A DNA stretch of 59,942 nucleotides from a virus (taxonomy: Duplodnaviria; Heunggongvirae; Uroviricota; Caudoviricetes), in IMG/VR virus record IMGVR_UViG_3300045988_167837. One strand, written 5' to 3'. The notes beneath the pieces were generated by a model, which worked only from the letters and a program-made list of their open reading frames with translations, made no database searches and had not been told where the DNA came from. How positions within the stretch are numbered: position 1 is the stretch's first letter; the number at the start of each line of letters is the position of its first letter. Below, one piece after another: positions 6,861 to 55,146 of the stretch. Made by a program: the position numbers and the translations under genes.

Positions 6861-7451
6861 CTATTTATTATAAACAAAACCAATATCTTTCTTGTGAGGC
6901 ATATCTGCTGCTGAAAAAGCTGCGATCTTCGCGAGTCGATCACATATTTCATTTTCACGATGCCCGGCGTGACCTTTAACCCACTTCCAGCGAACATTAT
7001 GTCGACTTGCGGCCTCATCCAGACGCTTCCACAGATCAACATTCTTTACCGGTTTTTTGTCAGAAGTCATCCATCCATTGCGTTTCCACCATTTCATCCA
7101 CTGTGTCATGCCGTTTTTCAGATACTGGCTATCAGAGTGCAAAATAACGTTGCATGGATATTTCAAACGCTCCAGCCCGATAAGTGCCCCCATCATCTCC
7201 ATGCGGTTATTGGTGGTGCTATGAAAACCATCTGAGAACTCGCGTTCCTCACCACGATACTGGAGAACGATACCGTAACCGCCCGGGCCACCCGGATTTT
7301 TAAGGCAAGAGCCATCACTAAAGATTTTCACGGTTTTAAGCTGGGGATTGAACTCTACGACAGGCGTTGTGGGATTGGTGCGGGGGGAATTTTTGTTTTT
7401 GGCTTTTTTGCGAGTTTTTGCTTGCGATCGGGCTGGTGTCTTCGTCGTCAT
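6861..7451 (-). CDS. rnhA: ribonuclease H (RNase HI-like) with basic N-terminal extension
   Basis: RNase H core motifs IFSDGSC...NPGGPGGYG...ERE...HSDSQY...GHAGHRENE; start set at internal Met (MTTKTPARS) of the 224-aa ORF. Confidence 0.8.
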
Positions 7452-7535
7452 ATAAACTCCTGAATCAAGCGCCGCGCCGATTTTTCCTCGCGCGTGCGCA
7501 CACGCGTGCGTGTTAATAATTATTAAAATAAACAA

Positions 7536-8033
7536 ATTACTTCCCAGAACAGGTTTTTATAAACCTGAACTGAACGAACGAAGTGAGTGAAGTTCACCTC
7601 GAACGAAGTGAGAGGTTGTCTTTTCAGGTAATACTCTCCCAGGGAGGTGAGTATAAAAATCTCTCACCAACCTGGTCGTTTCATAACCTGAAAAGTTATG
7701 GTCTAAGTCTACTGCCAGCTTAGACTTGGGAAGTTATGGATGACAGCACCCCAGAACCGAGATCTTCCCACACTTTATGAAGGGGAGTACTGGATTCAAC
7801 CTCTCGAAACACCCCAGACTCGACAATCATAAAGTGACCCTTGTCTCTGCTCACTTTGGTTCCCCCTTCCCCGACACCTAAACGGCACCAGTTCTACGCT
7901 GGTAGTGAGCTTTTTTAAACCTGACGCCAGTGACGCTTACCCCCACCCATCAGGTCGAGTCTCCAGTCTACGACTGGAAACTATCAGATCTTAGCACTTA
8001 CAATTCACTTTATGAATAGTTTGTACTTATCTA
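7536..8033. other. about 500-bp ORF-free region with internal direct and inverted repeats (candidate structured RNA or cis-acting site)
   Basis: No ORF of 60 aa or more; repeated GAACGAAGTGAG, AAGTTATGG and several short stem-loops. Confidence 0.3.
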
Positions 8034-8288
8034 TCATTGTGATTGATTATTTTCTCTACCATGTAGTTGAACATTCAAGGCAAACACCTCATTGATCAAC
8101 TCACCTAAAAGCTGTTCAACAAGTTCGCGATGCTCGCCAAGATGCAAGCACTTAATTGCCCATTCGTACAAGTTGAAAGCCTGCTCACGATCTTTCATCA
8201 TTTCACGAGCCTGGGCCAGAAAATCGCTCTCTACGAGCGCAACGACATTAGTCGGGTATGACATGTTGGTTTCCTTAAAGTGGTTCAT
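8034..8288 (-). CDS. hypothetical protein (84 aa)
   Basis: Short ORF, no motif. Confidence 0.3.
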   Translation of the reverse strand: MNHFKETNMSYPTNVVALVESDFLAQAREMMKDREQAFNLYEWAIKCLHLGEHRELVEQLLGELINEVFALNVQLHGRENNQSQ

Positions 8289-8449
8289 AAAATCGATTTT
8301 AAAGCGTCTGGGAAGGGGTTCTAGTGGATTCTGTTGTGATGTTCAGGTCTGGAGTCTCTGATACAAAACAGCCTGCTTCCGTATATTAATAATTAATATG
8401 TAGTTATTTATATATACAGAAGCAGGCTAATTACAGACGCCAGAACAAA

Positions 8450-12363: not shown

Positions 12364-12773
12364 TTGCTCACCTCATAGATGACCGGTCGATGGTGAGAGT
12401 CGGCTAAAGCGGCACGGAGTCGAGGATCGTGCACCAGCGCAGCGATAAGCAGATCGCCTTTATGCTCCGCTAATGTGCGCTTAATATGCTTCTCATAACT
12501 GGTGCCATTCGGTACGAGATGAAGCCAGTCATAATCAACGCCAAAATCTTTCAGCCATCGTTTAGTTGGCGCTTCAAGAGTTTCAGAGCGGCTACTGATA
12601 AGCACCACTTCAGCCCCTGAGCGAGCAAAACCACGCAACATACGGCTGGTGGGGAAAATGAGTTCATCACCGGCAATGAATTGGCCTGCATCCGAGTCAG
12701 ATACAGATTTACGATGGCTGGTATTTGCCAGCACACCTTCAATTTCGCATAAGACATACATACCTCTTGCCAT
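12360..12773 (-). CDS. hypothetical protein (ORF track gives 12360..12869; start placed at internal Met to avoid overlap with thyA)
   Basis: ORF overlapping thyA 3' end in another frame; internal MARGMYV start removes the overlap. Confidence 0.35.
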   Translation of the reverse strand: MARGMYVLCEIEGVLANTSHRKSVSDSDAGQFIAGDELIFPTSRMLRGFARSGAEVVLISSRSETLEAPTKRWLKDFGVDYDWLHLVPNGTSYEKHIKRTLAEHKGDLLIAALVHDPRLRAALADSHHRPVIYEVSK

Positions 12774-54492: not shown

Positions 54493-54579
54493 TGGCGGAG
54501 AGTAATGGAATCGAACCATCATCGCTTGCGCAATGGGACGGTTTTCAAGACCGCTTGAGCACCATGCTCCCTACTCTCC
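54493..54579 (-). tRNA. tRNA-Ser (anticodon TGA), class II with long variable arm
   Basis: rc folds as acceptor GGAGAGT/ACTCTCC, anticodon stem GCGGT/ACCGT with loop CTTGAAA, 14-nt variable arm, T-loop TTCGATT, encoded CCA. Confidence 0.6.
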
Positions 54580-54679
54580 AGCTATTGTGATGGTCGGTGC
54601 TGAACTCCGACACAGGGTTGTAGCAAGCCCCGCAAAGCGCGCACTACTGTAGTTGCGGCACATCAGCCTGTGCATTCAT

Positions 54680-54758
54680 CACAACGGTAAGATCACTACC
54701 TTTCGACCAGTCATTGTGCACATGAACGACGATTAACCGTAATGATCTTATCGTTGTG
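54680..54758. ncRNA. long hairpin element A (15-bp stem CACAACGGTAAGATC / GATCTTATCGTTGTG, about 49-nt interior) within tRNA cluster
   Basis: Perfect 15-bp inverted repeat with one G-T wobble position. Confidence 0.35.
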
Positions 54759-54809
54759 TTGTGAAGCCAGATGCTTATCTTCTGGTTGCTTCAAAGAGCT
54801 GCACTTCCT

Positions 54810-54898
54810 CACAACGGTAAGAGCACTGGTCTGACTCTATCGATTTACGGCCTTGTGGGTCAGTATCGCCGATTCGCCCAATGCTCTTACCTGTTGTG
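54810..54898. ncRNA. long hairpin element B (16/17-bp stem CACAACGGTAAGAGCA / TGCTCTTACCTGTTGTG) abutting tRNA-Thr
   Basis: Stem sequence shares CACAACGGTAAGA with element A. Confidence 0.35.
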
Positions 54899-54899
54899 T

Positions 54900-54975
54900 T
54901 GGTGCCGGTTAACGGACTTGAACCGCTGGCCATTCGCTTACAAAGCGACTGCTCTACCAACTGAGCTAAACCGGC
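54900..54975 (-). tRNA. tRNA-Thr (anticodon TGT)
   Basis: rc: acceptor GCCGGTT/AACCGGC, D-arm GCTC-AGTTGGTA-GAGC, anticodon loop TTTGTAA, T-loop TTCAAGT, encoded CCA; 76 nt. Confidence 0.65.
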
Positions 54976-54979
54976 AATT

Positions 54980-55066
54980 TGGTGGGGAGTGATGGAGTCG
55001 AACCACCCGAGTCGCCATGACAGTAGATTTACAGTCTACACCGCTACCTCTACGGACTAACTCCCC
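54980..55066 (-). tRNA. tRNA-Tyr (anticodon GTA), class II with long variable arm
   Basis: rc: acceptor GGGGAGT/ACTCCCC, anticodon stem GTAGA/TCTAC with loop CTGTAAA, long variable arm, T-loop TTCGACT, encoded CCA; 87 nt. Confidence 0.7.
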
Positions 55067-55071
55067 TAAAT

Positions 55072-55146
55072 TGGCGATGGTGGGTGGATTCGAACCACCG
55101 ACCAGTTGGTTAACAGCCAACTGCTCTACCGCTGAGCTACACCATC
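55072..55146 (-). tRNA. tRNA-Asn (anticodon GTT)
   Basis: rc: acceptor GATGGTG/CACCATC, D-arm GCTC-AGCGGTA-GAGC, anticodon stem GTTGG/CCAAC with loop CTGTTAA, T-arm GGTGG-TTCGAAT-CCACC, encoded CCA; 75 nt. Confidence 0.75.

Follow-up and report, generated by a model that had tools for sequence, protein, structure and literature searches.

The region under study lies in a 59,942-nucleotide stretch of DNA (hereafter the window) from an SSU5-like phage-plasmid and separates two minus-strand genes: an 84-aa gene of PHROG 5343 (8034-8288), which adjoins the segment described below in every locus with room for the gene, and rnhA (6861-7451), which encodes an RNase HI (Pfam PF00075) with a 39-aa basic N-terminal extension. 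The initial annotation had pointed to an ORF-free stretch of about 0.5 kb in an otherwise tightly packed region. The neighbouring genes are indeed compact and all on the minus strand, and the gap is real and slightly larger than had been noted, spanning 7452-8033 (~0.58 kb) when the rnhA start is taken as the ATG at 7451-7449. PGAP gives the identical 196-aa rnhA protein, and a 224-aa ORF that begins with TTG (6861-7535) was discarded as a merely mechanical extension of rnhA. The longest ORF within 7452-8033 in the ORF listing is 46 aa. In existing annotations the segment is blank, a 44-aa hypothetical protein (CYRAN_81 of phage-plasmid Cyrano) or part of an over-extended RNase H CDS (SSU5). 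The repeats and stem-loops that had been reported are present: two 100% identical copies of the 13-mer CGAACGAAGTGAG (7575-7587 and 7600-7612), the pair ACCTGAAAAGTTATGG and ACTTGGGAAGTTATGG (7686-7701 and 7724-7739) and multiple inverted repeats. By our own arithmetic an exact 13-mer repeat is expected by chance about 0.004 times in 700 bp, and no further copy of the 13-mer was found in the 60-kb window with up to two mismatches allowed.

Comparison with related elements delimited a core at about 7536-7981 that is 89-95% identical across four clades, compared with 67-81% for the five flanking genes, and that is the best conserved of the six neighbourhood segments compared. The core occurs in 687 of the 72,556 plasmids in PLSDB (at 90% identity or more in 676 of these 687 records, from at least six genera) and in 232 of 5426 complete E. 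coli genomes; its hosts are Klebsiella, Escherichia, Enterobacter, Salmonella, Citrobacter and Cronobacter, and the Cyrano copy is 96.7% identical to it. It is specific to SSU5-like phage-plasmids of Enterobacteriaceae, and a metagenome scan matched SSU5-like contigs only. Searches with nhmmer revealed no distant homologues at chromosomal rnhA loci, at distant phage RNase H loci (L153-L160) or in the related L144/L145 lineage, an RNase H-guided scan of genome contigs returned only chromosomal rnhA, and the 60-kb window holds no paralogue. As the L144/L145 lineage carries rnhA without this segment, the segment is dispensable for at least some relatives.

A structured non-coding RNA was one of the options raised initially, with a covariance-model scan as the proposed check. 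No Rfam 15 family matched: three tRNAs at 54.9-55.1 kb alone pass threshold in the whole window, and the best match to positions 7300-8400 at E <= 10 (E = 0.074, 21.5 bits against a 56-bit threshold) lies in a GC-rich block downstream of the core. ARAGORN found no match within the gap region, and literature searches on non-coding RNA in SSU5 or pHCM2 and on the 13-mer retrieved no relevant paper. The case for a structured RNA, which stood, is carried by the other evidence given below.

The segment might instead hold a small protein gene, such as the 44-aa ORF annotated in Cyrano, or a decayed pseudogene, as the over-long SSU5 RNase H spanning the region could suggest. We regard this explanation as extremely improbable, since 1-2-nt indels disrupt the reading frames in clades L113, L142 and L148, third-position variation is absent despite 20-30% divergence of the neighbouring genes, and no hydrophobic toxin-like peptide is encoded. 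With ORFs of at most 46 aa, and small ORFs unconserved across clades, the coding hypothesis was rejected.

Folding the alignment with RNAalifold on the minus strand yielded a consensus of 135 pairs at -149.9 kcal/mol, with 99.6% of cells paired, in which the ~446-nt core forms 18 predicted helices. At its 5' terminus, hairpin H1 (7959-7981) contains three pairs with double changes and keeps its pairing although its sequence is entirely different in each clade. H2 (7918-7956), a 15-bp hairpin with the G-rich apex GGGUGGGGG, has three compensatory pairs (AU<->GC, CG<->UA), and the H3-H5 domain (7849-7910) contains invariant, mostly unpaired G runs (GGGGAAGGGGGAACC), a UA/UG/CG series at the H3 pair 7908/7851 and a GC/GU/AU series in H4. 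The central domain (7610-7847) is predicted to be closed by a long-range helix, GAGA..GGU with ACC UCUC (H6/H7), and to comprise H8 (10 bp, compensatory), H9-H12, the compensatory hairpin H13 (7701-7725) with the CAUAACUU repeat on its flanks, and H14/H15, a long invariant hairpin (7620-7695). Next comes a 43-nt 3' module (7570-7612), CUCACUUCGUUCG-n12-CUCACUUCGUUCGUUCAG, which carries two CUCACUUCGUUCG copies and is invariant in all relatives, and then the 3' hairpin H18 (7544-7573), whose variable loop and upper stem are compensated (UA<->GC) and which is followed by the invariant CUGGGAAGUAA. The repeats noted initially are therefore parts of this RNA, the 13-mer pair falling within the 43-nt module and the AAGTTATGG pair flanking H13. 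An alternative fold places the first 13-mer in the loop of a hairpin ACCUC/GAGGU.

Comparison among relatives for compensatory base changes, the second check proposed for the locus, bore out the structure. Eleven pairs had both partners changed, compared with 2-4 in slid controls, and these changes amounted to 115 cells, against 4-19; the covariation score was 0.093, compared with at most 0.031 in controls, and none of 500 shuffles reached the observed value. Raw pairwise covariation is confounded by phylogeny here because there are only about five clades, and helices H14-H17 in the invariant 3' part show no covariation, either for or against pairing. Evolution of the segment is thus uneven, the 5' third changing by compensation and the 3' two-thirds remaining invariant at paired and unpaired positions alike. 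The strand could also be assigned: G-U pairs make up 10.8% of cells in the minus-strand reading, reading these helices on the plus strand leaves only 88.8% of cells paired, and the consensus energy is -134 on the minus strand versus -100 on the plus strand. Folding is better than that of shuffles on both strands (z = -3.8 minus, -4.1 plus). We conclude that the pairing constraint acts at the RNA level and that the RNA is encoded on the minus strand.

Upstream of the core, alignment of the relatives shows a predicted sigma-70 promoter on the minus strand (7988-8016), consisting of a -35 box TTCATA (8016-8011), a 17-nt spacer and an extended -10 box TGcTAAGAT (7996-7988), from which transcription would start at ~7981-7983. 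The boxes are kept as TTYA.. and TGnTAnnAT in all clades and the spacer and surroundings vary; a stricter consensus promoter scan did not call a promoter for the minus-strand RNA. The -35 box is separated from the stop codon of the 84-aa gene by ATAGATAAGTACAAACTAT (8016-8034), a degenerate copy of a recurrent 20-bp palindrome (ATAGGTAAGTACTTACCTAT) that is perfect in Klebsiella-type relatives (GGTAAGTACTTACC). On the 3' side, an AT/U-rich spacer (7513-7538) differing in length (17-40 nt) and sequence among clades is followed by a GC-rich block (7469-7512) composed of a CGCACGCGTGCG palindrome and the hairpin CGCGCGAGG-A5-UCGGCGCGGCGC, a candidate terminator or attenuator, beyond which lie UUGAUU and the ribosome-binding site of rnhA. 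At the 3' side of the RNA no canonical intrinsic terminator was recognized; the GC hairpin there has a weak U tract only. We infer the exact ends of the RNA and the use of this promoter from these elements.

Published RNA-seq of Cyrano lysogens, whose counts carry no stated strandedness, gives normalized counts of 117 for CYRAN_81, 9.5 for CYRAN_80 and 8.4 for rnhA (CYRAN_82), which puts CYRAN_81 some 12-fold above the genes on either side (PMC9928086 S1 Table). CYRAN_81, which its authors listed as a 12x 'moron', exceeded both flanks 8- to 40-fold in five of five conditions, and rnhA stayed at background in all five (PMC9928086). The CYRAN_81 annotation falls inside the RNA segment, which therefore produces a discrete transcript signal distinct from those of the neighbouring genes, about as strong in the lysogen as that of the repressor and falling ~14-fold before rnhA. 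The initial annotation had named the lack of a transcript and of conservation across related elements as grounds for dismissing the feature; since the region is conserved in relatives and transcribed, both are contradicted.

Downstream of the RNA is a variable slot that rnhA usually occupies, and in which TIR-NLR, JukAB, HEC-06 (GmrSD), HEC-08, an HNH nuclease or IS200/IS3 are found as alternative occupants. In six of the 72 viral loci and eight of the 54 metagenomic ones, rnhA is truncated or another occupant takes its place, and the RNA is complete. Its persistence at loci with other occupants shows that it is no leader dedicated to rnhA; a cis-regulatory role of that kind is also contradicted by the converse case, rnhA without the RNA in L144/L145. 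The RNA is thus both conserved and independent of rnhA, and comparison of the loci places it as the fixed left border of a slot that exchanges anti-phage defence genes. Protein cargo genes are co-oriented with the RNA and begin 57-496 nt downstream, the exceptions being transposases and one 200-aa ORF. In the variants with replaced cargo, homology breaks inside the GC-rich block at ~7477; in the TIR-NLR, HEC-06, HEC-08 and HNH variants a shared linker replaces the 3' arm of the GC hairpin, and in the JukAB variant the hairpin is intact.

This arrangement raises the possibility, which we consider doubtful, that the RNA is a long structured 5' leader acting as an expression platform or conditional terminator for any gene in the slot. 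The lysogeny-active promoter would then feed the slot, and the fold would decide whether polymerase passes through the GC-rich hairpin, with two mutually exclusive pairings, H6/H7 plus H17 on one side and the local ACCUC/GAGGU hairpin on the other, competing for CAACCUCUC. Its position on the same strand immediately 5' of the slot, the co-orientation of the protein cargo with the exceptions and distances just given, and the existence of alternative pairings are consistent with such a leader, and the signal drop before rnhA is what an attenuator would be expected to cause; where the linker has taken the place of that hairpin's 3' arm, termination could be lost and the defence genes would then be expressed in lysogeny. 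However, ~450 nt of near-invariant sequence far exceeds the needs of any known attenuator, the JukAB variant retains the hairpin, rnhA is at background in every one of the five Cyrano conditions, no signal or ligand is known, and the cargo genes may have promoters of their own.

The 43-nt module is also found in T4-like phages. It is up to 39/43 identical to elements of these unrelated phages (nhmmer E = 1.4e-8), and the sharing of this module between phage-plasmids and T4-like phages is, as far as our literature search reached, previously undescribed. The T4-like elements are intergenic, adjoin uvsY, uvsW or gp55, and occur in RB43-like Pseudotevenvirus such as EC-W2 and in environmental phages (L176, L255, L258 and L260). 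They share the 13-mer (CGAACGAAGTGAG/CTCACTTCGTTCG), in many cases enclosed by a short stem whose sequence is unrelated and then followed by a U-rich tract, and they carry it in both polarities, the inverted copies flanking 80-170 bp of AT-rich DNA. Beyond the module they have nothing in common with the SSU5 RNA, and the 84-aa gene showed no homology to the small genes beside them. The PeSL promoter/stem-loop cassettes known from T4-like phages were rejected as the identity of the module, as PeSL stems are simple G/C or A/G runs that differ from this motif. The shared motif allows a quite unlikely reading, in which the RNA would be a sentinel riboregulator of the defence slot, that is, an RNA-based infection sensor or decoy encoded by the phage-plasmid. 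Its invariant 3' domain would display the 13-nt loop motif that is also present in the regulatory elements of RB43-group T4-like phages, which infect the same hosts, and the motif would be bound either by something that an infecting T4-like phage brings in (a factor or a transcript) or by a host factor common to both; the binding partner might be titrated, as by a decoy, or might flip the RNA between its two alternative folds, such that the lysogeny-active promoter would read into the downstream RNase H or defence gene.

The module also bears on the secondary (lytic) origin that had been proposed as another option for the gap. Here the transcript would be a replication primer or R-loop RNA comparable to ColE1 RNA II or the T4 oriF/oriG transcripts, rich in G runs, hybridizing persistently at the downstream AT-rich stretch and processed by RNase H. 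In its favour are the structured transcript of ~0.5 kb with invariant unpaired G runs, the AT-rich stretch just 3' of it, and its setting in a T4-like DNA-metabolism module (nrdAB, td, dfr, gp46/47-like) beside a phage RNase HI gene. In ColE1-type systems a gene for antisense RNA I overlaps the first ~110 nt of RNA II on the other strand, whereas simple scans, a weak test, detected no plus-strand promoter-like site in 7850-7975 and no Rfam RNAI match. The T4 R-loop origin oriF lies in the uvsY/uvsW region (PMC3016281), beside which the 43-nt module recurs, but in origins of the oriF/oriG type the promoter is directly followed by a ~50-bp DNA unwinding element (PMC3016281), whereas the AT-rich stretch at 7513-7538 is ~445 nt from the promoter and variable in length. 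No copy of the module was found in EC-W2 between 15 and 65 kb, an interval that includes gene 34 (the oriG-syntenic position). Moreover, cumulative GC skew is unchanged at 7.5 kb, the repeat has only two copies and forms no iteron array, the plasmid encodes a separate RepB-type initiator, and the RNA is kept where phage rnhA is lost and is abundant in lysogens, in which lytic replication is off. We found no positive evidence for an origin, of the oriF/oriG type or otherwise, and consider such a function very unlikely.

The remaining initial option, a packaging site, was not upheld either, given that the constraint is on RNA base pairs and that the Cyrano terminase genes are ~78 kb away (135-2023 versus 78.6 kb). 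More generally, the segment could act purely as DNA, as a protein-binding or recombination site (iterons, a pac site or a homology arm for cargo exchange). Its location at the border of the variable slot and its direct repeats would fit, as would the arrangement of the same 13-mer in inverted repeats around AT-rich DNA in T4-like phages, and the invariance of the 3' two-thirds could also come from a DNA site or from frequent recombination. Yet compensatory changes and strand-specific G-U tolerance are signatures of constraint on RNA, each repeat has only two copies, and the segment is transcribed well above its neighbours; homogenisation of hotspot flanks was rejected as the cause of conservation because it fails to explain why orf164, the other border of the slot, is only ~67% identical. 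We therefore hold a purely DNA-level element to be very improbable.

Taken together, conservation above that of the flanks, compensatory changes, strand-specific G-U pairs, a promoter and RNA-seq signal bear out the initial suggestion of a structured non-coding RNA, and the gap is probably a stand-alone gene of a new family of structured non-coding RNAs, ~450 nt long and expressed in lysogeny. Transcription would proceed from ~7981 under the extended -10 sigma-70 promoter (8016-7988), producing first a protective 5' hairpin and then a multi-domain fold, and most transcripts would stop short of rnhA, at either the U-rich spacer or the GC-rich hairpin (7538-7469), giving an RNA of ~450 nt, or of up to ~515 nt if it extends to the GC-rich hairpin. 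Expression of the RNA would take place in the plasmid (lysogenic) state, while the early and DNA-metabolism genes around it are silent. The 5' third may serve as a structural scaffold that evolves by compensatory changes, and the invariance of the 3' two-thirds, paired and unpaired, points to constraint by contact with a partner, protein or nucleic acid, which would probably involve the two displayed CUCACUUCGUUCG copies. A search of the rest of the 60-kb window for potential trans-targets gave perfectly complementary stretches of 11 nt or more at chance level only. Most likely, the molecule acts in trans or locally during the lysogenic state, and it would at the same time provide the constant, promoter-bearing left border of the swappable cargo/defence slot.

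SSU5-like phage-plasmids are common in clinical Enterobacteriaceae and can carry resistance genes. Expression in the lysogen at about repressor level, together with the position at the fixed edge of a defence hotspot, makes the RNA a candidate regulator, whose target could be lysogeny, superinfection or defence, or the expression of cargo, possibilities that are directly testable in available strains such as LF82/Cyrano and SSU5.

Several known systems resemble parts of this locus. Type III toxin-antitoxin (ToxI-like) RNAs consist of tandem ~36-nt repeats followed by an endoribonuclease toxin gene, and were rejected as a match because the 13-nt repeat has no more than two copies, spaced 25 nt apart, and the next gene encodes RNase HI or belongs to the variable cargo. 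Type I toxin mRNAs of the hok kind carry a conserved small hydrophobic ORF in a structured ~400-nt mRNA and were rejected too, no ORF here being conserved across clades and none hydrophobic. The immunity RNAs P4 CI, P1/P7 c4 and N15 CA are 70-200 nt long and pair with complementary boxes in the same transcript. Like them, the SSU5 RNA is a lysogenic RNA whose gene lies, in the same orientation, inside an early operon that is otherwise silent, with short repeated boxes and transcription that stops shortly downstream; unlike them, it is several times larger and has two 13-mers of the same polarity, and no box complementary to the 13-mer was found at up to two mismatches in the 60-kb window of the ~110-kb element. 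tRNA and tmRNA genes anchor genomic islands, and here as well the 3' side of a conserved structured-RNA gene forms the constant border of variable cargo; this RNA, however, is neither tRNA nor tmRNA, an integrase or att duplication is not evident, and the replacement looks like homologous exchange. A further parallel is with ROOL and GOLLD, large 'ornate' structured non-coding RNAs of phages and prophages. The SSU5 RNA has no sequence or structure match to these or to any other Rfam 15 model, is shorter (~450 nt), occurs only in enterobacterial SSU5-like phage-plasmids at a defence/cargo hotspot, and lies 47 kb from the tRNA genes rather than beside them. With its strong helices and invariant G-rich loops it nevertheless joins the few big phage and bacterial RNAs of unknown function, and, like ROOL and GOLLD, it is a long, multi-domain, highly conserved RNA of a temperate mobile element that was found through intergenic conservation.

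The window belongs to an SSU5-like phage-plasmid of E. coli. A 701-bp query around the ORF-free stretch upstream of the RNase H gene matches many E. coli plasmids of ~110 kb at 100% identity; for Salmonella phage SSU5, the Escherichia phages Cyrano and PhiR41_1, and phage-plasmids of Klebsiella, the identity is 87-98%. The neighbouring genes, all on the minus strand, make up a block for DNA metabolism (nrdAB, thymidylate synthase, dfrA51, 3'-5' exonuclease, adenine methylase, an 84-aa gene termed orf84, the gap, rnhA and small genes). The initial annotation had noted here an ORF-free region with repeats and stem-loops, and both the ORF-free stretch and the repeats are real: the gap spans 7452-8033 when the rnhA ATG is taken at 7451 (the start of a 196-aa RNase H backed by PGAP and Pfam), and its longest ORF has 46 aa; two copies of CGAACGAAGTGAG lie at 7575-7587 and 7600-7612, with a second pair, ending in AAGTTATGG, at 7686-7701 and 7724-7739; inverted repeats are numerous. 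Shuffled sequence folds less well than either strand (z ~ -4). The 'putative ribonuclease H' laid over this region in the SSU5 reference (JQ965645.1/NC_018843.1, 78785-79208) has an over-extended start, and the window ORF 6861..7535 (224 aa, TTG start) is the same artefact.

Elsewhere on the element, the trimethoprim resistance gene dfrA51 sits within the DNA-metabolism operon of phage-plasmid NZ_CP022167.1, whose 86-90.5 kb region (upstream of window coordinate ~1400) carries a chromosomal-type metG (methionine-tRNA ligase) and apbC beside an IS1 remnant. The minus strand carries a cluster of four tRNA genes (Ser-TGA, Thr-TGT, Tyr-GTA, Asn-GTT) at 54493-55146, beyond which the G+C content at 56-58 kb is 65% (window average ~46%). 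Several gene junctions share a 20-bp palindrome, ATAGGTAAGTACTTACCTAT (2794, 6845, 9058, 18609, 23293, 27127, 41404, 50442 and, more weakly, 41165), often immediately ahead of a ribosome-binding site or start codon, with a degenerate copy at 8016-8034; its nine matches compare with 1.1 expected and were reached by none of 100 shuffles, and possible roles are an operator or, at the RNA level, an inter-cistronic hairpin with an 8-bp stem and GUAC loop.

Segment-by-segment comparison of 71 SSU5-like loci collected via the RNase H protein revealed that the gap is 86-92% identical among relatives, versus 76-81% for rnhA and 75-80% for the 84-aa gene. Within it, a core at 7536-7981 is 89-95% identical in four clades whose flanking genes (orf164, rnhA, orf84 and the methylase) are 67-81% identical, while both edges of the gap (7452-7535 and 7982-8033) vary. 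Of 687 plasmid records, from Klebsiella, Escherichia, Enterobacter, Salmonella, Citrobacter, Cronobacter and others, 676 match the core at 90% identity or more; among 5426 complete E. coli genomes, 232 contain it, and PGAP leaves it unannotated there. A coding or pseudogene reading of the small ORFs is scarcely credible: the ORFs shift frame or vanish in three clades (L113, L142, L148), none encodes a hydrophobic peptide, and near-zero substitutions are incompatible with a coding region given neighbours differing by 20-30%.

The RNAalifold consensus of 49 distinct core sequences comprises 18 helices (H1-H18, numbered from the RNA 5' end) and 135 pairs at -149.9 kcal/mol, with standard pairs in 99.6% of alignment cells. 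The compensatory changes sought among relatives were found: compared with controls in which 3' partners were slid by 1-3 columns, changes on both sides affected 11 pairs (versus 2-4) and 115 cells (versus 4-19), and the covariation score was 0.093 (controls at most 0.031), values reached by none of 500 shuffles, although naive pairwise covariation is inflated by shared ancestry with only about five clades. Support is concentrated in six minus-strand helices, H1 (7959-7981, a 5' hairpin paired in every clade despite wholly different sequences), H2 (7918-7956), H3 (7905-7910 with 7849-7854), H8 (7827-7836 with 7771-7780), H13 (7701-7725) and H18 (7544-7573), whereas H14-H17, towards the 3' end, are invariant, so that their pairing is only predicted. 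Many consensus pairs are invariant or alternating G-U pairs, the same helices read as plus strand pair in only 88.8% of cells, and an earlier consensus fold had -134 kcal/mol on the minus versus -100 on the plus strand; we conclude that the functional strand is minus. A pure DNA site, which would place function in the duplex, is accordingly very improbable beside this strand-specific pairing, even though a DNA site could also produce the invariance of the 3' two-thirds.

The sequence ahead of H1 varies except for two boxes found in all clades, a -35-like TTYA and an extended -10 (TGnTAnnAT), separated by a 17-nt spacer. In the window these alignment-derived boxes are TTCATA (8016-8011) and TGcTAAGAT (7996-7988) on the minus strand, and their positions place the predicted start at ~7981, the first base of H1; a stricter consensus promoter scan did not list this promoter. 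At the 3' end, invariant CUGGGAAGUAA gives way to a spacer rich in U and A whose length varies (7538-7513); next come a conserved GC-rich block (7512-7462), which contains a hairpin and a weak U tract, and the rnhA ribosome-binding site. The proposed check of RNA-seq coverage could be made in Cyrano, a phage-plasmid of E. coli LF82 whose core is 96.7% identical and in which a 44-aa 'hypothetical protein', CYRAN_81, is annotated inside the RNA. CYRAN_81 is among the 'morons', 12-fold over prophage background in lysogens (PMC9928086), with normalized counts of 117 versus 9.5 for CYRAN_80 and 8.4 for CYRAN_82 (rnhA), the counting strand not being stated; in all five conditions its log2(fpkm+5) is 6.8-10.3 versus 2.6-5.8 for the flanks, a level similar to that of the putative repressor CYRAN_45 (PMC9928086 S1 Table). 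A discrete transcript therefore exists in the plasmid state, in which its neighbours are silent, and most of it ends before rnhA. Core conservation, compensatory changes and this transcript bear out the suggestion of a structured RNA, and the element is very probably a genuine non-coding RNA gene on the minus strand. Another 'hypothetical protein' of Cyrano, CYRAN_43 (OV696614.1 40268-40822, beside integrase and repressor), is 723-fold over prophage background in lysogens with normalized counts of ~7000, and is a candidate RNA or exclusion function.

Among loci gathered by DNA pattern, independently of RNase H, 6 of the 72 viral ones and 8 of the 54 from metagenomes have the full RNA but no rnhA downstream of it. 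The position between the RNA and orf164 (window 6861-7477) is instead filled by TIR-NLR (PADLOC E = 8e-166), JukA/JukB (PADLOC 6e-65 and 3.5e-12), HEC-06, a GmrSD-type nuclease (2e-215), HEC-08 (6e-146), an HNH type-IV-like nuclease, an LprI-like lipoprotein, or IS200 or IS3 transposases (loci L231, L198/L212/L228/L279/L307, L314, L311/L304, L295, L310, L267, L245 and L246). An orf164 homologue forms the right border in every case; the left border lies within the GC-rich block just after GAGG-A(5-9)-TCG (~window 7477), and a linker common to most cargo variants precedes the cargo-specific sequence (junction GAGG-A7-TCG/CCCATCGCAATGTCTTCAATGTGCCA). Two loci (L144/L145) have rnhA without the RNA. 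Thus, rnhA is the commonest occupant of a variable slot, and its usual position is a cargo and defence hotspot of SSU5-like phage-plasmids. The slot's right flank is only ~67% identical, so homogenisation of the hotspot flanks by recombination does not account for how conserved the RNA is. Because the RNA stays intact where other cargo fills the slot, a leader specific to rnhA is rejected, and the RNA does not need phage RNase H in cis. The main rival, a conditional leader or attenuator for whatever the slot holds, agrees with the RNA's place ahead of the cargo and with the fall in signal before rnhA in Cyrano; we regard it as possible but unlikely.

The 3' two-thirds of the RNA are invariant, loops and G runs included. 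Across the RNA, invariant G runs at 7862-7872, 7940-7948, 7812-7815 and 7749-7752 (GGGUGGGGG, GGGGAAGGGGG and two CUGGGGUG boxes), predicted mostly unpaired, might make tertiary contacts or form a G-quadruplex or R-loop. When the 13-mer pair of the 3' part was used as a search pattern, unrelated viral contigs also matched, the full 13-mer CTCACTTCGTTCG occurring in 7 of 10 unrelated contig families. Four contigs (L176, L180, L185, L247) are identical to window 7612-7570 at 39 of 43 nt (nhmmer E = 1.4e-8); in these and in L255, L256, L258 and L260 the motif flanks, in both orientations, 80-170 bp of AT-rich DNA, and the elements lie between uvsY-uvsW and gp55-gp47-gp46 homologues. The 13-mer (CTCACTTCGTTCG/CGAACGAAGTGAG), here at window 7570-7612, is thus common to this RNA and to intergenic inverted repeats of T4-like phages beside uvsY, uvsW or gp55, at L176 9026-9245 and L253 (EC-W2 12517-12697), with further loci in L255, L256, L258, L260, L197 and L217. 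Enterobacter phage EC-W2 and 63 other RB43-like records have a similar element between gene 24 and the uvsY promoter, conserved in the 64 records at 2-3 places per genome, and the host genera of these phages are those of the phage-plasmids. Short covarying stems of unrelated sequence (here ACCUC/GAGGU; elsewhere AACAA/UUGUU, CUGGU/ACCAG, GUCCA/UGGAC, UUCUAA/UUAGAA and GGG/CCC) often enclose the 13-mer as a hairpin loop, and a U-rich tract usually follows. We rejected the PeSL cassette of T4-like phages as an identity for this module, which had no Rfam match and whose 13-mer was not found in the open literature. An R-loop or primer origin, to which the G runs and the phage elements might point, is improbable; no module copy was found near gene 34 of EC-W2, which leaves a link to both T4 R-loop origins without support.

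We favour, as a reasonably likely account, an RNA that would bind a partner in the lysogenic state and would also supply the cargo slot with its fixed, promoter-carrying border; lysogenic expression, the invariant 3' two-thirds, independence from the downstream gene and the defence-hotspot position argue for partner binding. ARAGORN found nothing in the region, and the Rfam scan that had been proposed returned no match in Rfam 15 at gathering thresholds or at E <= 10; as we found no description in the open literature either, the RNA family is new. Its general kind, the large structured RNAs of temperate elements, is already known; what is unusual is its setting, on a phage-plasmid, at the border of a defence hotspot and with a module in common with T4-like phages.
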